Position numbers and translations under genes: made by a program. A DNA stretch of 64,000 bases from a virus (lineage: Duplodnaviria; Heunggongvirae; Uroviricota; Caudoviricetes): IMG/VR virus record IMGVR_UViG_2740892449_000004; one strand, given 5' to 3'. The notes under the pieces were generated by a model. The model saw only the letters and a list, made by a program, of their open reading frames with translations. It was not told the DNA's origin and ran no database searches. Of this stretch, positions 50,040-60,159 are shown piece after piece; position 1 is the first letter of the stretch, and the number at the start of each line of letters is the position of its first letter.

Positions 50040-51448
50040 TTAACCTATTGCTACTGGTTTTAACAAACCAGCATCAAGTAGCTTGCGAGTTAACCACTGC
50101 TGGCCTTTACCCGTTAATTGGGGCGTCAGCCGTATCTGGTAGCCATTTTCATCATCCAGCACCACTTCTTTCACCGTGAAATATCCGGCGTTGATGTACT
50201 GCTGGCGCGGTACGTTTTTGCGCGCACCAAAAGCATGAGAATGCCGTTCTGGCGCAACCATGAGAAAAGGGCGTTTTGCTTAAGTCCAACGACCTTTGCA
50301 AAGTTCCCGATCAGGATTCCATTAGCCACTGATACCCGGTCGGCAAAATCGACTTTAGGGGCTGCGGCCACCAGCTGCTGATTTAGCTGGTGGGTTTTCT
50401 GTTCCAGTAGCTGCTTTTGTTCAGCCAGCTCGGCAGCCAGGCGCAGAGCTTCGGGAAGCGTCTGGGGGATTGCGACCGGTTGCTGTTCTTTTTGCTGGAA
50501 GTAGCTGTCTTCCAGTTTTTCAAAGAATGCCCACGCTTGCTCTGTGTCTACGATCTTAGACATGCGTGCCGCTCCGCGTTCGGTCCAGAGTATTAAGGAT
50601 CTGGTCTTGGGGGAAATTTGCAGCTCGCTAAAAGATAGTCGCAAACTTTTTATCTCATCTCCTTTGATTTTAAAGAAGTGTTTACCCTCTACAAATCGTT
50701 CTTCATTGCGATTGTAGTTCTGCTGAATACGAATAGGTGTAGTGCCATACCCTCTAGCAAGAGTCTCGGTTGTCACGACGCGTACTCCCTGCCATTCCAG
50801 AACGGGAATTTCATCAGGCTGATTTTCAACATTTATAGGTTCCAATGACTGAATCATGGTATGTAGCGAACGGCGGACCGCTTTCGATTCGCGCGCGGCG
50901 ACTCGCAGGGCTTGTTTGTAGGTCATGGTTATGACAACCATAGGCGTACCGCCACCTGGCGGCACGGTTGCACTTTTTGTGTAACCGTCCTCACCTTCTA
51001 ATTCGTCGAGTATTTTTTCGATGAATTTGTTGTTCCGAACCTCTGGTTCCCCACATAACTTACGCGCTTCATTGACCATCTTTAACAGTGTCAGGCTGTC
51101 GATTGTGTCTCCGGTGTTGGGGATAATATTCACGGCTGGTGCTGGCGTAGCTGACGTAACAGGTGCTGGTTTTTCAACATTCAAATTATTACCGGTCATT
51201 CTATGTGCCTCCTTTCTCATTTCTGCTGCCACTGTTGCGTAACGTAGACGTCCTTGTTCAATCAAATAATCCCTGATCTCGGCTATCAGTAGCCTGTTGA
51301 TCACAGCCTTATCTGTTCGGGTATAAAAACGCCTGGTTATCATGAAATAGTTAGCAATTGCGCCGGGGATCTCCCGTGTCGGCATACAGGCAGTATGCAA
51401 GGCGATCGCTTCGGCTATTTCATTACGGGTGACGAGAGGTGTTTTCAT
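50040..51448 (-). CDS. ant: Antirepressor Ant (frameshifted near 50228-50231)
   Basis: Start MKTPLVTRNE overlaps icd stop; C-terminal domain homologous to KilA C-terminus continues in the -1 frame (73-aa ORF 50040..50261) after a T4 run. Confidence 0.7.
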
Positions 51449-51666
51449 AAACCCCCCTGAACGTCGGCAGAGAAGGGGAGGCTCCAATAACTAAGTGAAT
51501 TGCGCGAGTTAGTTGAAAAACGGGCAGTAAAAATGCAGGGGCCATCAGGCAATTGAGAGCGTGCTTCGTCTTCTGTTGCTGCGATAACGAAGTGATAGTG
51601 GTGTTTTTGGCAGGAGTAAAAGCGCCAGATAAATTCAGGATGAGTAGGGGTAGGGATAGTAGCCAC
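51445..51666 (-). CDS. icd: Icd-like small protein (GTG start)
   Basis: 73 codons with AGGAGG ribosome-binding site, 4-nt overlap with ant start. Confidence 0.55.
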   Translation of the reverse strand: MATIPTPTHPEFIWRFYSCQKHHYHFVIAATEDEARSQLPDGPCIFTARFSTNSRNSLSYWSLPFSADVQGGL

Positions 51667-51684
51667 AATGGCAGCCTCCTTTTG

Positions 51685-51800
51685 CTAATTTAAGGAGCTA
51701 CCGCGTGAGGTTCCAATCTCAATGGCGGTAGCACTGACTGGGTTGGAACTACCGGCGCAAAAGGGAACCGGCCTGCCTTTCGGCAGCCCAGCCAGCACTA
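51685..51800 (-). ncRNA. c4: Candidate c4-type antisense regulatory RNA region (ends not defined)
   Basis: Noncoding leader between operator/promoter and icd with nested inverted repeats (GCTACCGC/GCGGTAGC, GGTTCCAA/TTGGAAC); position as for P1 c4. Confidence 0.3.
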
Positions 51801-51850
51801 CCATTGATCTCGGAGCTATGTGCTACGTATGGTTGTGCGATGGCATGACA

Positions 51851-51874
51851 CAAAAAAAGACGCTTTTGGCGTCT
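51851..51874 (-). terminator. Terminator-like hairpin in the immI leader
   Basis: On minus strand AGACGC-CAAAA-GCGTCT followed by TTTTTTTGTG. Confidence 0.45.
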
Positions 51875-52000
51875 ATGTCGCCTTTTGCATTATCCGGGGT
51901 TCCAATCCCGGCATCCGTTTTACTAAGATGCCTGTTTAGGATAAACCGAAAATGCATTAGCACGCAAGCAAGTTAATGTAGCATATGAAGCTAAAAAAAT

Positions 52001-52017
52001 AAAATAATTAGAGCAAC
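52001..52017 (-). promoter_or_regulatory. C1 operator at head of immI
   Basis: reverse complement GTTGCTCTAATTATTTT, 14/17. Confidence 0.45.
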
Positions 52018-52085
52018 TTGCAACCATGTAAATTATTTCTCTGGTAACTAAAATGTATGAGTTTAATTGATATGGGTCAAAGATT

Positions 52086-52114
52086 TTGACCATTGCATGG
52101 TGAAACTTTATGCT
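52086..52114 (+). promoter_or_regulatory. Sigma70-type promoter for the AT-rich cassette
   Basis: TTGACC - 17 bp - TATGCT, 50 nt upstream of ATG at 52164. Confidence 0.45.
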
Positions 52115-52163
52115 ACAAAATGTTATTTTAAGGCGTTTTATCTGTGGCAGGAGATAGTTAATC

Positions 52164-52514
52164 ATGTCATCTGAACATGTTCGTAAAGGTGTAACAAATG
52201 CGAAATTCAATGAAGAGCAATCTAATATTCTCTTTATTGAAATAGGAATTCTGTCAATACTGATAGGTTTAATGTCTAAATCATGGTGGGCCTTTGGCGG
52301 TTCTTTTCTTGGACTGATTTTTAGTTTAAGAATAAAATTTCTAGCAATACCATTGATGATTGTATTTAGCTTAGTATGGGGAGCTATTGGCTATAGTATT
52401 GGTACTTTGTTTGAATCAACAGCAGCAAGTATTGTTTTGGGGGTAATTGCTTTCCTGAGTGGTTTGGGTACTCATTTTGCTGCCGTGCAATGGGCAAATG
52501 ATATTGCAGAATAA
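52164..52514 (+). CDS. Small integral membrane protein (3 TM helices), AT-rich cassette gene 1
   Basis: 116-aa ORF with GGAGA ribosome-binding site; three hydrophobic helices; AT-rich codon usage unlike neighbours. Confidence 0.6.
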   Translation: MSSEHVRKGVTNAKFNEEQSNILFIEIGILSILIGLMSKSWWAFGGSFLGLIFSLRIKFLAIPLMIVFSLVWGAIGYSIGTLFESTAASIVLGVIAFLSGLGTHFAAVQWANDIAE

Positions 52515-52536
52515 TTACAGATAAGAAGCGAAAAGA

Positions 52537-52959
52537 ATGAATATGAGATGGTTTTTATTATTTGTATCGTTAGTTTCAGCAGGAACATTTGCAAAAATTG
52601 ATCCTCTACAATGGAATGTAATTGAAGAGAGAGGGGGGAGAGAATATACAATCCATAATCATAATGGTGATAAGATAAGTTTTTTATGTGATATGGGATT
52701 CATGTATGGTTCACCAGATAGTGCAGGTAGTTTAGGCTTGTTGCTAAGTTCGTCGAATAATAAAAAAGAGTATAATGCTGACAAGAATAAAATAGTATTA
52801 ACTATAGATGGTGAGCAATATCCTTTTAGCAATCTTGGATCAATGGTTGGAGATTCTTGGTGGTATGCCTTTTGGCAAGATGCAGCAGATTCAAATGCTA
52901 ATATGATTGATGCTTATGTTGATAATGAAAAAATTGCTACATTCCCTCTTTCTGGCTAA
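52537..52959 (+). CDS. Secreted/periplasmic protein, AT-rich cassette gene 2
   Basis: 140-aa ORF with signal peptide MNMRWFLLFVSLVSAGTFA. Confidence 0.6.
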   Translation: MNMRWFLLFVSLVSAGTFAKIDPLQWNVIEERGGREYTIHNHNGDKISFLCDMGFMYGSPDSAGSLGLLLSSSNNKKEYNADKNKIVLTIDGEQYPFSNLGSMVGDSWWYAFWQDAADSNANMIDAYVDNEKIATFPLSG

Positions 52960-53053
52960 GTAAGTTGTATCAACAAGCCAAAATGGATGGATGTATTAAA
53001 CGAGGCAAATGATCTTTCTGTGTTAAAGATTAACGCAATCAATAAAACATTGG

Positions 53054-54121
53054 TTGCGTAATATTCTATTATATAAATGGAATAATATGACAAAAATTAC
53101 TAATTCTAATGAGTTGAAGTTACTGTATAAACAGTCAGTGCTCATTCCATCATACAAAGATCACGTAGCGATCTTGCAAAAACAATTAGGAATAGAAAAA
53201 CATTCTTTTCAAAATATGACAAGATTGAATAGACAAGCTGTAATTAGTAACTCTCTTCGAAAACAATTTGCTAGTATACCGAACTTGGCTGGAATAGGCA
53301 GCAAGTATCGTGAACATATCGCGATTTTACAGAAACAGACTCAGGCTCTTTTCCCTCATGATGCAAATAGATATATTCAAATGCTAAGGAAACAGGCCGA
53401 AATAGCTATGCCATTACGAAAACAGCTTGAGGTGCTTAATAAGCAAGCTGGTTTAAATAACATGCAAGCGATACTTAAAGAATTACAACAAAGTGCAAGT
53501 TATAAAATAGATGTAAGCCAAGACATAAAGAAAGTACTAGATCACTATGCTAGAACAAGAAATGCTTCATTACATCAAATAATAGAGCAGGGGATTTCAT
53601 CTATTGCGCAGGCTTATGCTGAAGGTGCTACTGAAACATCACACACCAAAAGTAATGTTCAAAATAAAGGATTAAATAAACCTAGCTCAAAGTTTGTTGA
53701 TTCATTTAAAGAGCTTCCTTATCCACTGCAATGGTTACTAATGGTTATATTTTCTCAAGTTGTGTTTGGTGCTTTTATTGATTACGGAAAAGAGAAAACC
53801 TTGCTGGGAATACACAAGGCAGAATCATATTTTATATCTCTGTTTGAGGATAAACCAATATCAAAACAACAATTAATTAAAGAAAACAAAGAAATTAGTT
53901 GGGAAGATCTCAATGGTTTTCGTTTTATAACTGGTGAGAACGTAAGATTACACGTCAGTCCTTCTATAAATAGTGAGGTGATTGAATGCATTGGCAAAAA
54001 TACTATAGTGGCTGTTTTAGATAAAAAAGATCGCCAATGGCTTTTCGTGCAGGTTAAATCAGGGGACGAGTTTATTACTGGATGGATTACACGAACATAC
54101 ACAAAGCCTCTTAAGGCTTGA
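53054..54121 (+). CDS. Membrane-anchored protein with N-terminal repeats and C-terminal SH3b-like domain, AT-rich cassette gene 3
   Basis: N-terminal repeats (H.AILQKQ... twice), one TM helix (LQWLLMVIFSQVVFGAFIDY), C-terminal SH3b-like fold; likely ATG start at 53087. Confidence 0.55.
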   Translation: MRNILLYKWNNMTKITNSNELKLLYKQSVLIPSYKDHVAILQKQLGIEKHSFQNMTRLNRQAVISNSLRKQFASIPNLAGIGSKYREHIAILQKQTQALFPHDANRYIQMLRKQAEIAMPLRKQLEVLNKQAGLNNMQAILKELQQSASYKIDVSQDIKKVLDHYARTRNASLHQIIEQGISSIAQAYAEGATETSHTKSNVQNKGLNKPSSKFVDSFKELPYPLQWLLMVIFSQVVFGAFIDYGKEKTLLGIHKAESYFISLFEDKPISKQQLIKENKEISWEDLNGFRFITGENVRLHVSPSINSEVIECIGKNTIVAVLDKKDRQWLFVQVKSGDEFITGWITRTYTKPLKA

Positions 54122-54222
54122 ATTTTATCACCGTATCTTGGGGCTGGGTGTTGATGATGATGTGCTACTTGAAGTACTTGGGTTTTTTAACGCAGCATCT
54201 GAAATGTGTAGACTGACCGGTA

Positions 54223-54243
54223 ACAAATGACAACTCGTATAAT
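54223..54243 (+). promoter_or_regulatory. Putative late promoter
   Basis: ACAAATGAC-N6-TATAAT with no -35, 32 nt upstream of ATG at 54275. Confidence 0.5.
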
Positions 54244-54250
54244 CGGGTAA

Positions 54251-54841
<591 letters not shown>

Positions 54842-54851
54842 GGGGGCTGAT

Positions 54852-55463
54852 ATGGGGCTTAATGTTGCTTCAGTAAAGTCTTATGTATCTTCGGCATTAA
54901 CGACGACATTATTTGGCTCCGGCGTTGGTGAGCGGGAAGTTGGCAAGCTGACGTCAATCATCATGAACAAAATGCTGTTCGCGCAAGGATGGCAGTTCTC
55001 TGTCGAAGTTGATGGTCTGGAGGGGGCAGACTTCTTTGCTAAAGACATTACCTACCACGATTACAGCATCGAATATGAAACGATTAAAATCGGCGGAGGG
55101 AATATCCTTCAGCCAACGGAGCGTTCGCCTGGGCAGATAACAATGATGGTCAGGGATACCGTTGATGGCCTCGTTTTGGACTGGTTTAAGACGGCAAAAA
55201 GTCGAGTGATCAATCCGGACGGTACCGGGAATATACCGTCTAAATATTTGCTCAATGTGCGTATTTATCGGTTGCTGTCCTCCGGTTTAACCAAACTGGA
55301 AAATGAGATGACGGTATTCCCGGTCACTACCGGCGATGTCACCTATGCGCGGGATCAGGTTACGGAATTTAAGTCATTCCCAATGACCTTCGCATTGCAC
55401 AGCACGTTTAACCAATCCTCAAGTTCTTTAGCTTCCCTTCTGGGCTTTAGTTTTTCGCTTTAA
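54852..55463 (+). CDS. Hypothetical tail-module protein
   Basis: 203-aa ORF. Confidence 0.55.
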   Translation: MGLNVASVKSYVSSALTTTLFGSGVGEREVGKLTSIIMNKMLFAQGWQFSVEVDGLEGADFFAKDITYHDYSIEYETIKIGGGNILQPTERSPGQITMMVRDTVDGLVLDWFKTAKSRVINPDGTGNIPSKYLLNVRIYRLLSSGLTKLENEMTVFPVTTGDVTYARDQVTEFKSFPMTFALHSTFNQSSSSLASLLGFSFSL

Positions 55464-56440: not shown

Positions 56441-59400
56441 ATGGAAAGAAAAAACGCCAATATTGACGATGTTATAAGGACAGTTGAAACCGCCAGCGCG
56501 AAAGAGCTGGAAGAGCTTGCAGGTATTCGGGAAGCTGTTGAAGATTTGAAAGGGGAACGAGTTGCAACTGTTGATCCTGTCTCTCGCAGTGTGTCGGCAT
56601 TAAATCGCACAATCGAAAATTCACGTCCTGACTTTGTGACCAATGTGCCATCAGTGGACTCTATTGTTGACGCAATGAAACGGCTTAATTTAGGGGACGT
56701 TTCTCGTATACGGGAGGACAAAGTCACTAACCGTGAACAGCAGGCTGCACCAACAGCGCACAATCCCCCAAATAGACGAAGAGAGGCAATAACAGAGGAT
56801 GTTAAAGCACAGCGGTTAGAAACGGTCAAACTCGCTCGTGATTTGAAAGGGGAACGCGTTGCAACGGTTGACCCAGTATCTCGCAGTGTGTCGGCATTAA
56901 ATCGAACAATCGAAAATTCCCGGCCAGACTTTGTGGCCAATGCGCCATCAGTAGACCCTATTGTTGACGCAATGAAACGGCTTAATTTAGGGGACGTTTC
57001 TCGTGTAGTTCAGGAGGGCATTGCTCAACAGGAACAGCAGGCCAAATCAACTACACCAAAGGGTAAAAAAAGACGCAGGAAGGCTATACCAGAGGATATA
57101 AAGGCACAACGGACCGAAGCAGCCGAACACGCTCGCGAAATGTTCGATCAAAAAGGCGGCGCGCAAAAAAGCCAAAACCAACGCGATGCGCGTGGTCGTT
57201 TTATTGGAAAGTCAGGGAGTAAGGCCGCAGCGGAAGATGCCCGTGCTGAACGTGCTGAAAAGGCCAGGCGCAAAGAGGATGATGAGCGTCTAAATGCTGA
57301 ATCAGGTTTATTAAAAAAAATGTCAAAAGTAGCTGAAGGCATAGGTAACCCTTCAGAGACTCGTGCCGTCGATGCGTTAGGTTATGCCGTTGCTGGTCCA
57401 TTGTGGGCAGCAGGGAAGGAGCTTGGCGGGATATCAAAAGAAGTTGGTGGATCGCTTAATGGTGCCAGAAAGTCTATTGCCGATGTGATTCGTGGCAATG
57501 ACGATAACAGCCGTAGAAAAGGTTTTTTTAGGCGTAAATCGCAAAATAGTGCCGATGTCGTTCAGGTTAACACCCAAAAACGGACGGTTCAGGAACTTCA
57601 GGAGCAGACCAGCGAAATTAAAGAGGGCAATGACAAGATTCTCCGCGCCCTTGATCAGATAGCCAAAAACACCGGTAAAAAGAAGGGCGGCTTGCTGTCC
57701 AAACTATTTAGCCTGTTAGGGAAGGGGGCCGGTGGCGTCGCGTCGTTGTTAATGGGGCGTGGCATGCTGAAAAAAGCTGGAGCACTCGCTTTTGGCGCTC
57801 TGGGGGCAAAGAAACTTGTAGGAATGCTACGCGGTGGTGGCAAGAAGACTCTCGCTCATGAAGGCGGAGATTTGGCTGCCCGGGCAGCAGGTAAACTTGG
57901 ATTAAAGGCAGTTGGTAAAGGGGCGTTACGCGCAATTCCCCTAGTCGGCACAGTGGCTGGAGGTATTTATGATGCGGTAACCGGTTGGAATGATACAGAA
58001 GCGCAACGTCGAGCGTTTGGGCTTAAATCAGGACAAGATCCATCATTCCAGCAAAAAGCCGCTTATACGTTAGCCAATGTTCTTGATTTGGGGGGACTGG
58101 TATCTGGTATTAGCAGTGCTATTGGTGATGTTCTCAAATCACTTGGATTTGAGGATATCGGCAATATGTTGCAATCATTTTCGACGGAAAGTATTGCCCA
58201 GGCCATTGATAGCGGGGTTACCAACTTAGAAACATATATTTCTAACCTTGGCGACACCATTTCTACCAAGTTCGATGATTACACAGCAAAGATTGGTGAT
58301 GCTGTTTCAGCATGGTTTAGCGATACATCTAATAAGTTGCTTGAAAAGCTGGATGCCATAAAAGACTTCTTTACTGTCGATAACCTGAAACAGGTTTTCA
58401 GTGATGCAATTGATAGTGCAATTGACTTCATTAAGAACCCAGGGAAACACATTAAAGAGGCGGCTGGTAATATTTTGGATGGGGTTAAAAATTTACCCGG
58501 TAAAGCATTAGATGCAGCGGTTGATGCCGTTAAAAATACCCCTGCGGCAATGATTGTATCAAAAATACCCAATCCGATCGGCGAGGCTAATGCAAAAGAA
58601 ATCACTCCAGAGTTAAAAGCTCCGGTTAATAGCCACCAGGAGACATCTGATTCTAAAACTGAATCCGATGCTAAACAGACTAATATTGCTACCCGCGTGA
58701 TAAATGCGGCACTGGACACGGCGAAAGATAGCAATAAAACAGTTAAAGAAACTGCCAATCAGATTATCAATGCAAATGCCGTAGAAACGGGCAATAGCGC
58801 GGTGCGGAAAATTGATTCAGCTATTGGACAAAATAGCTCGTCATCATCGTCGCGTAATACCACCGGCACTGGGAATGACATTCAGAAAGCTGCTGATACC
58901 TACAATAATGGCAACTTAGATGTAAAAGTCGGAAGCTTGGCGCTGAAGGTAAGGCAAATCTCGATAAGTTAGCTCCGTATTTTGCTGAACTAGAGAATAA
59001 ATATGGTCTTCCTGAAGGCACTCTTTACGCGATTGCTGCAACTGAATCAGGAGGGGATCCTAACGCAAAGTCTCCGCTTACAAGATCACCAGATGGAAAG
59101 TTAAGTGGTGGCGCACTCGGGATGTTCCAGTTCACGAGTATTGCTCGTAAAGAGACAGGGATATCGGAACCGGATGCATTTGATCCTGTGAAATCGGCAG
59201 AAGCTGCGGCTCTTCTCATGAGCAAGTATCTGAAGCAAGCCAATGGAGACTTAAACGAGGCCATCACTGCATATAACGCTGGGTTTGGCACTATTAATAG
59301 GTGGAAAAAAGGCACAGGTGACTTATCGAAAGAAAACCGTGAGTACGCGATCAAGGTCAATACTCATCGTGCGCGCTATTTAGGTGGTGAAATCTATACA

Positions 59401-60159
59401 CCAGGGGCAGGAGCACAGGGGGGGGCGCAATATGGAGTGAGGGGACCACTGCCTGATAACGCCGTTATCGATCAGTCTACTGGCCTGGCGTTTACCCCTG
59501 GTGATAGCCCGTTTGAGAAGGGCGGTCTGGTAGACAAAATCGGTAATGCTGTTGGCGTTAACGATCTGGTCAACAAATTCATGAATGGTCGGGGGATGCG
59601 TCGAGAAGTCGTCCAGGGAACCCTCGAAGAACGTGCACGAGGAAATGGGACCGCAACAGCAGCTGGCAATGTGTATGTTGATACTCCGATGCCAGTTGAA
59701 GAGGCGCGTCCGGTGGCCAGCAACTCAAGTTACTTTGACCAGCTCGGTGCACAAATGGGGATTGATGGACTGTATGACAAACTCATTAATGCCCGGGGAA
59801 TGCGCTCAAATAATTCTCCTCAACCAGCCTCCACGTTCCAGGTGACGACTGCCGCCAACGATTTGCAGCAACCAACCGGTCGTATGCAGATAGACGGACA
59901 GGTTATTAGTGACCTTGGCGGCTCCGGTGCCAAGCCGACAATGCAGTTGGCTGATAATACCGTTTCACTTGATGGTGAAACGAAGCGGCTGTTTGCGCAG
60001 ATGACCTCATTGCTTGCCAGGATTGAAGAGCACACTAAAGACTCGGCGAAAGGCCAGGGAACTGTCGTAAAGGTCAGCACGCCTCAACCGGGCGTTATGC
60101 GCACGGTGCCACTGTCAATTGATGATCCGTTGATGAATGACTACGCGAGAGTTGATTGA
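56441..60159 (+). CDS. sit: Sit-like tail protein: tape-measure-type region plus C-terminal lytic transglycosylase domain (frameshifted near 58946-58952)
   Basis: 843-aa ORF with internal repeats and Gly-rich region; SLT domain (AIAATESGGDPNAKSP...GMFQF) sits in the -1 frame, open from 58909 through 60159; one G missing at CTGAAGGTAAGG. Confidence 0.7.
56540..57010. repeat. Two roughly 160-bp direct repeats (about 90 percent identical by eye) inside sit
   Basis: 56551-56712 and 56845-57006 encode LKGERVATVDPVSRSVSALNRTIENSRPDFV.N.PSVD.IVDAMKRLNLGDVSR. Confidence 0.6.

Follow-up and report, generated by a model that had tools for sequence, protein, structure and literature searches.

A type A allele of the hypervariable sim locus in a P1-like phage-plasmid as a candidate envelope-acting exclusion module

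The 64,000 nucleotides of DNA analyzed here (IMG/VR record IMGVR_UViG_2740892449_000004; the whole 64-kb stretch is hereafter the window) are those of a P1-like phage-plasmid, and the AT-rich block at positions 51990-54230 is an allele, which we call type A, of the hypervariable low-GC sim locus of such elements. The block holds three plus-strand open reading frames (ORFs), ORF1, ORF2 and ORF3, and sits between the C1 operator of the immI operon on the left and the late promoter LPsit on the right. The argument is one from position, and by that argument the block is a fair candidate for a new exclusion module. We tentatively favor, at somewhat less than even confidence, a role in envelope-acting superinfection exclusion, in which the genes would be expressed in the lysogen and would block genome delivery; this reading draws on the position of the block, on predicted export signals and on the lack of a late promoter.

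A foreign allele at the sim locus

The block has a GC content of 0.340, against a mean of 0.476 (standard deviation 0.027) for windows of the same size over the 64 kb, and it is the sole region among them below 0.40. The GC content at third codon positions is 0.22-0.26 in ORF1-ORF3 and 0.47-0.53 in the adjacent tail genes pmgC, tub and pmgB. The block is compositionally foreign. An earlier interpretation made from the letters of the DNA (the sequence-only reading) had called the block visibly more AT-rich than the rest of the window, and these values rule out a uniform composition. It had also placed the block between the C1 operator heading immI and the first late promoter, and both landmarks are where it put them:

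52001-52017, minus strand: C1-operator-like site GTTGCTCTAATTATTTT at the head of the immI operon, differing from the operator consensus at three positions; the left landmark, equivalent to P1 Oc4/Op51
52164-52514, plus strand: ORF1, 116 amino acids, three to four hydrophobic segments; phrog_15014
52537-52959, plus strand: ORF2, 140 amino acids here and 158 in relatives; PF27224, phrog_3429
53087-54121, plus strand: ORF3, 344 amino acids from an ATG; phrog_7086
54225-54243, plus strand: LPsit-type late promoter AAATGACAACTCGTATAAT (-22 box and -10), the right landmark

The window contains 12 C1-operator-like sites against 0.24 expected, and the site at 52001-52017 lines up with the annotated Oc4 of P1 and P7. 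LPsit is annotated at the equivalent of 54225-54243 in P1 and P7 as well. With positions 51400-54900 as the query, the flanks are 96-98% identical to P1, P7 and relatives, and no phage record matched the central ~2.6 kb. On the left side, megablast homology to P1 stops near 51640, which makes the regulatory RNA region a different allele as well.

In the position of the block P1 carries simA, simB and simC, and P7 carries upf50.5 and upf50.0. Five aligned alleles all turn collinear exactly at the LPsit -22 box, and the operator core is kept on the left. One published survey counts simABC as one of eight low-G+C regions that are highly variable in such phage-plasmids (PMC9603915), and another describes the region as a hotspot of low GC where recent acquisitions are found (PMC6906374); the low GC and the variability of the locus are real and were already known. 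The sequence-only reading had the block transcribed away from immI, in the genome position of superimmunity functions, and this agrees with three plus-strand genes in the orientation of sim and in the slot that sim occupies in P1. Its description of the block as inserted is better replaced by allelic replacement at a known hotspot, involving a common allele. Repeats flanking the block, as a sign of transposition or site-specific insertion, were looked for and none were found. The junctions fall within conserved regulatory DNA, which fits homologous recombination.

Allele counts in 5426 complete E. coli genomes show that the locus varies among P1-like elements. The adjacent P1-like tail genes pmgC-tub were matched in 509 genomes, about 9% of the total. 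P1 simABC was matched in 251 genomes (127 nearly full length), the P7 upf50.5/upf50.0 pair in 164, and part of the type A cassette in 113, among which 37 hold the full cassette (at least 80% of it). A tblastn map of 30 related loci (numbered with an L), read together with their annotations, gave the following types:

Type A (window, L001, L010-L016, L033): ORF1, ORF2, ORF3
Type B (L005, L007, L017-L030): a 172-amino acid exported "SimA-domain" protein, a 168-amino acid ORF2 paralogue, a 389-394-amino acid ORF3 homologue
Type C (L004): ORF1, ORF2, then a reverse-strand DUF4760 gene; no ORF3

Type B is at the same locus as the block and, like it, has an SH3b gene paired with and following a YfjT-family gene, with identities to the window of 26-29% for the ORF2 paralogue and 62-78% for the SH3b (ORF3) proteins. 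It differs in its first gene and in its P1-type c4-a1b1 immI leader, where the window has an IsrK-like leader. Some type B loci hold an ORF2 remnant and a DUF4760 gene. ORF1 accompanies ORF2 in types A and C. On Citrobacter, Salmonella, Yersinia and Scandinavium elements, ORF3 has more distant relatives (33-48% identity), which are solitary and lie in unrelated neighborhoods. ORF1-ORF2 thus occurs without ORF3, and ORF3 occurs behind other first genes or alone, so there is no obligate three-gene unit. The single three-gene cassette of the sequence-only reading therefore does not hold, and ORF1-ORF2 and ORF3 assort separately. The stable association, within Escherichia P1-like elements, is that of a YfjT-type gene followed by an SH3b gene, with a swappable first gene; in A and B, the two divergent E. 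coli allele types, the SH3b gene comes immediately after the YfjT-family gene.

Every allele of the slot appears to encode only membrane or exported proteins, judged by signal peptides that are annotated or evident. SimA, SimB and SimC begin with residues that have the look of export signals, Upf50.5 and Upf50.0 have annotated signal peptides, and the type B proteins and the DUF4760 protein have signal-like or hydrophobic N-terminal segments.

Predicted proteins of the block

The outline given by the sequence-only reading is retained: the first protein is polytopic in the membrane (three to four hydrophobic segments), the second has a signal peptide, and the third combines repeats, a transmembrane segment and an SH3b domain. 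Its gene models stand as three genes, with two amendments: ORF2 is truncated by a 1-bp deletion, and ORF3 is taken from the annotated ATG start at 53087. The latter is the start used by RefSeq in a near-identical plasmid, and the ORF listing had used a TTG at 53054. The three proteins are already in databases as hypothetical proteins and as PHROGs of unknown function.

ORF1 is a predicted small polytopic inner-membrane protein. Its sole match is phrog_15014, and Pfam, NCBIfam and PADLOC gave none. The 78-amino acid YpjK of K-12 was compared with it as a possible relative and was ruled out. ORF1 and ORF2 are 22 bp apart. This tight linkage and the co-occurrence of the two genes in types A and C would suit an abortive-infection or toxic membrane module, in which ORF1 would be a holin-like effector restrained or triggered via ORF2 or ORF3 upon a breach of the peptidoglycan; the size of ORF1 and its number of transmembrane segments are also like those of small membrane effectors. 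However, ORF1 has no holin, toxin or Abi family match, type B and the solitary contexts have ORF3 but lack ORF1, and there is no indication of a sensor. We consider such a module very unlikely.

ORF2 has a signal-peptide-like N-terminus (MNMRWFLLFVSLVSAGTFA) that ends in ...SAGTFA, followed by K, with no lipobox cysteine present, and is a predicted periplasmic protein. It is 28% identical to K-12 YfjT over 143 amino acids (pairwise E 4e-11). The ORF2 cluster and 120 listed relatives carry a precomputed PF27224 (YfjT) assignment, and the RefSeq name of the identical 158-amino acid protein is "YfjT/YkfB family phage-associated protein." On these comparisons ORF2 is a genuine member of the YfjT/YkfB family; the Pfam and NCBIfam model sets scanned for ORF1-3 were without the PF27224 model. 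Possible relationships of ORF2 to P7 Upf50.0, SimB and SimC were ruled out by negative comparisons. A full HMMER scan for the YfjT family returned only 22 representatives, and a profile search returned 284 clusters, mostly from Enterobacterales. The AlphaFold2 model of the 158-amino acid form has a predicted local distance difference test (pLDDT) score of 79.8. Two cysteines, C51 and C153 in the 158-amino acid numbering, are invariant across the family and probably form a periplasmic disulfide bond.

Alignment with plasmid p36C_1_p3 places a 1-bp deletion in a G run of the window (52954-52955, plus strand; GG here and GGG in relatives). The deletion cuts ORF2 from 158 to 140 amino acids, and the last 18 residues are lost, including the invariant Cys153. 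The signal peptide and C51 are present, and residues 141-158, with C153, persist in the next frame at 52956-53009. The 140-amino acid form is found on just one other public contig, and the deletion may be genuine or may have arisen as a sequencing error in the homopolymer. With ORF2 truncated, the ORF1-ORF2 part may be impaired in this element. The loss of an invariant cysteine would be expected if the block were decaying cargo with no current function here, and the tape-measure gene sit of the window is likewise frameshifted and carries an internal duplication, while type B loci hold an ORF2 remnant. Decay nevertheless seems to us quite unlikely: ORF1 and ORF3 are both intact, with hundreds of copies in databases at 99-100% identity, the ORF2 lesion lies in a G run where it could be a sequencing error, and elsewhere the family is kept as intact genes across 26-78% divergence.

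ORF3 consists of a variable, repeat-rich helical N-terminal region (residues 1-212), a transmembrane segment (213-232), a conserved linker and an SH3b domain at about 288-340. An internal duplication relates residues 22-70 to residues 73-123; its score is 70, and shuffles score 29.7 +/- 4.7. The segment at 213-232 is the single hydrophobic segment of the protein, and an N-terminal signal peptide is not present. The full protein scores 26.0 bits against Pfam SH3_3 (PF08239) and its C-terminal 112 amino acids taken alone score 28.4 (cut-off 27); SH3_3 was matched by 13 of 13 ORF3 relatives, with a best E of 3.2e-10. By profile match, the C-terminus of ORF3 is a bacterial SH3 domain. We predict a cytoplasmic N-terminus and a periplasmic, peptidoglycan-binding SH3b domain. 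The full-length AlphaFold2 model of ORF3 (pLDDT 36) is unusable, and searches of PDB sequences with ORF2, ORF3 and SH3b profiles returned nothing significant.

The ORF3 family comprises 48 clusters, whose named members are all from Enterobacterales (mostly Enterobacteriaceae, plus Yersinia), and most members are on contigs of roughly 90-100 kb, the size of phage-plasmids. A scan of genome contigs for ORF3 relatives returned 3 loci only. Conservation in the family is strong in the transmembrane segment, linker and SH3b domain, and the N-terminal ~200 residues vary in sequence and in repeat number. The best-conserved part of the block is thus the segment predicted to lie outside the membrane, together with the SH3b domain.

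SH3b domains are common in endolysins, the SH3b part of ORF3 has a weak PHROG amidase match (E 0.0087, confined to that part), and the block adjoins the tail and sit operon. A late lytic or virion-associated accessory, such as a wall-binding protein or a lysis helper in P1 morphogenesis or lysis, might be read from these features, but we find it barely credible. The Pfam and SH3_3 scans found no catalytic domain in ORF3, the block lies upstream of LPsit, and a search for the late-promoter motif within the block found none. The cassette is also not in P1 or P7, both of which are fully functional, and the locus is dispensable in P1 (PMC10695390).

The case for exclusion and its main rival

The signals that could drive and delimit expression of the block are the following:

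52086-52114, plus strand: candidate sigma-70 promoter for ORF1-ORF2, TTGACC-17-TATGCT, 9 of 12 consensus positions
53033-53059, plus strand: stable hairpin between ORF2 and ORF3, folding free energy (dG) -13.9 kcal/mol, z -5.3, with a weak U tract
54104-54119, plus strand: terminator-like hairpin at the end of ORF3, AAGCCTCTTAAGGCTT then GAATTTTATC, dG -7, z -2.7, upstream of the late promoter

The sigma70-like promoter that the sequence-only reading had assigned to the block is present as a motif, but promoter-like sites are not enriched in the block (7 found against 10.1 expected from shuffles), and the -10 hexamer is TGTGCT in the related type C allele, so TATGCT is not conserved. The hairpin at 53033-53059 overlaps the TTG that could serve as a more upstream start of ORF3, and it marks the boundary between two sub-modules. 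It might act as a partial terminator, a processing site or an attenuator, or might be a recombination scar. At the place equivalent to 54104-54119, P1 has a clearer terminator.

In the proposed mechanism, one sub-module would be ORF1-ORF2, a polytopic inner-membrane protein with a periplasmic YfjT-family protein, and the other would be ORF3, a bitopic inner-membrane protein. If transcribed from sigma-70 promoters outside late control, the genes would be made in the lysogen. Their products would assemble where inner membrane, periplasm and peptidoglycan meet, and would act like Sim: superinfecting phages would be stopped at a step of genome delivery that follows adsorption. One route would be to shield the peptidoglycan or the membrane entry site from the transglycosylase/tape-measure protein of the incoming tail. 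We looked in the rest of the window for paralogous segments of ORF1-3, a possible sign of virion-protein mimicry, and found none.

P1 simABC is the closest functional precedent by position. It shares with the block the slot between Oc4/Op51 and LPsit, the orientation away from immI and the encoding of exported proteins, as well as low GC and dispensability (PMC9603915; PMC10695390). In the GenBank annotation of P1, simC is labeled "superimmunity." The sim genes are reported to cause superinfection exclusion (Kliem and Dreiseikelmann 1989, as cited in PMC10433841), and P1 lytic growth does not need them (PMC10695390). P1 simABC differs from the block in encoding three signal-peptide proteins rather than polytopic membrane, YfjT-family and bitopic SH3b proteins. 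BLASTP of ORF3 against SimC gave E values of at least 2.2, hhalign of the YfjT-family profile against SimC and SimB gave a probability of about 1%, and tblastn of SimA, SimB and SimC against the window found nothing. The view that the three genes are not core P1-family genes is correct, as ORF1-3 are neither in P1 nor in P7 and have no homology to the Sim proteins.

The P7 pair upf50.5/upf50.0 likewise occupies the slot and encodes envelope proteins, but these are a lipoprotein with a weak TraT-like/glycine-zipper match (Upf50.5 against TraT, E 7e-5) and a DUF5384 protein, with sequences unrelated to those of the block. There is no lipobox lipoprotein among ORF1-3, and they gave no TraT or related Pfam matches. 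In K-12, the CP4-57 genes ypjK-yfjS-yfjT (and ykfB of CP4-6) resemble the block in having a YfjT-type gene after genes for small membrane-anchored proteins. The K-12 partners are the YfjS/YafY lipoprotein and the 78-amino acid YpjK, whereas ORF2 has as partners ORF1, a protein with no relationship to YpjK, and the SH3b protein; the YfjT homology of ORF2 gives no mechanism. T4 Imm and Sp, P22 SieA and HK97 gp15 are envelope proteins that block genome entry after adsorption. Their likeness to the block is in the proposed mode of action only, and we claim no homology; to our knowledge, they all lack SH3b domains and YfjT-family partners.

For exclusion speaks, first, a slot identical in position to that of simABC in P1 and of upf50.5/upf50.0 in P7. 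The locus is allelic, ORF1-3 fit the export-signal pattern of its other alleles, the block is free of late-promoter motifs, and a terminator-like hairpin precedes LPsit. The YfjT and SH3b genes are paired in divergent alleles, and ORF3 keeps its SH3b domain and linker while its N-terminus varies in repeats.

Several points weigh against exclusion. ORF1-3 have no sequence or profile similarity to SimA, SimB, SimC or the Upf50.x proteins. The PADLOC-DB v2 models gave no match for ORF1 or ORF2 and only a chance-level REase_II match for ORF3 (E 0.024). ORF2 is frameshifted in the window, and the YfjT family is found chiefly in CP4-57/CP4-6-type islands and other non-phage contexts. The solitary distant relatives of ORF3 adjoin unrelated genes, for example umuDC and genes like those of integrative and conjugative elements. 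The topology of ORF3 is read from one hydrophobic segment and the lack of a signal peptide. The promoter at 52086-52114 is unproven, being a consensus match, and E. coli often silences DNA as AT-rich as this.

The main rival is a host-fitness "moron" at a permissive hotspot, whose envelope proteins would alter the wall or envelope physiology of the lysogen (stress tolerance, division or surface); abortive infection, decay and a late lytic role are less likely. The typical setting of YfjT-family genes, in CP4-57/CP4-6-like islands beside a YfjS/YafY-type lipoprotein gene and also in Aeromonas chromosomes, would be natural for such cargo, as would single ORF3 relatives in non-immI contexts on other elements and the lack of defense-model matches. 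The predicted layout of ORF3, with a cytoplasmic region, a transmembrane segment and a peptidoglycan-binding domain, would resemble that of host bitopic cell-wall proteins such as DamX and FtsN. Against this, the only allele of the locus with a known phenotype, P1 sim, acts in exclusion, the ORF3 family is almost only on phage-plasmid-sized Enterobacteriaceae contigs, and the Pfam and NCBIfam scans of ORF1-3 found no known virulence or fitness domain; the NCBIfam scan gave no matches at all. We regard host-envelope cargo as doubtful but a real possibility.

Envelope-acting exclusion, which we continue to favor, can be put in a more specific form. The YfjT-family periplasmic protein and the membrane-anchored SH3b protein, with a polytopic partner, would constitute an unrecognized exclusion system that stops the Sit protein of incoming P1-like myophages at the peptidoglycan and inner membrane, in a slot that swaps at least five unrelated envelope-acting exclusion modules, and this would be the first YfjT/YkfB function. 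This stronger version is rather unlikely.

Leader RNAs, neighboring genes and implications

Two small RNAs were found in the immI leader of the window:

51853-51931, minus strand: IsrK-like small RNA (Rfam RF01394, 58.3 bits, cut-off 50), directly upstream of the C4 RNA
51721-51808, minus strand: C4 antisense RNA (RF01695, 76.7 bits)

P1, P7 and the type B loci carry the c4-a1b1 element (RF03163) where the window has the IsrK-like leader, and ORF1-ORF2 co-occur with the IsrK-type leader in the window and in type C. At the equivalent of window 51685-51804 (minus strand), RefSeq annotates in p36C_1_p3 a 39-amino acid coding sequence as an "ash family protein." It overlaps the C4 RNA gene, of which it is probably a mis-annotation.

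The ant1-like ORF of the window (50171-51487, minus strand; 438 amino acids) has only two segments that match P1 Ant1 (71% and 87% identity), separated by a stretch without a match, and this mosaic ant1 allele is also present in L016 and L033. The tape-measure/lytic transglycosylase gene sit (window 56441-60159), whose product has 1140 amino acids in relatives, is split into ORFs of 843 and 345 amino acids; the gene is frameshifted near 58915-58940, and some 270-400 nucleotides are duplicated internally near its 5' end. The lesions in sit and ORF2 suggest a defective element or an error-prone sequence.

Other alleles of the locus gave no matches to PADLOC. A DUF4760 membrane protein of 297-320 amino acids takes the ORF3 position in type C (L004 4616-5509, minus strand) and is also encoded in L005 and L023; in some type B loci its gene comes after the ORF2 remnant, and the protein has no PADLOC match. 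The 172-amino acid type B protein (L005 1645-2163) ends in GMRHQNVQGTLEERARGPGVA, which resembles the Sit segment GMRREVVQGTLEERARGNGTA (window 59389-59655). Its C-terminus is 36% identical over 99 amino acids (pairwise E 1e-8) to this segment, which lies downstream of the transglycosylase (SLT) domain, and the type B protein could mimic the injected protein or act as a decoy for it. P1 SimA (52 amino acids; L002 2165-2323) is about 90% identical to the N-terminal ~50 residues of the 172-amino acid protein, so SimA looks like a remnant of the type B protein, and the P1 sim locus looks like a mosaic from a type B-like ancestor.

If its role is not exclusion, the block is one more uncharacterized cargo set at a known hotspot. 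If it is an exclusion module, it would add a new protein architecture to the few envelope-acting exclusion systems, would provide a first function for the YfjT/YkfB family of the K-12 cryptic prophages, and would explain the fast turnover of the locus. P1-like phage-plasmids are common in E. coli and spread resistance genes, and the entry of phages into a lysogen, including that of other P1-like elements and of transducing particles, may depend on the cargo of the sim hotspot.

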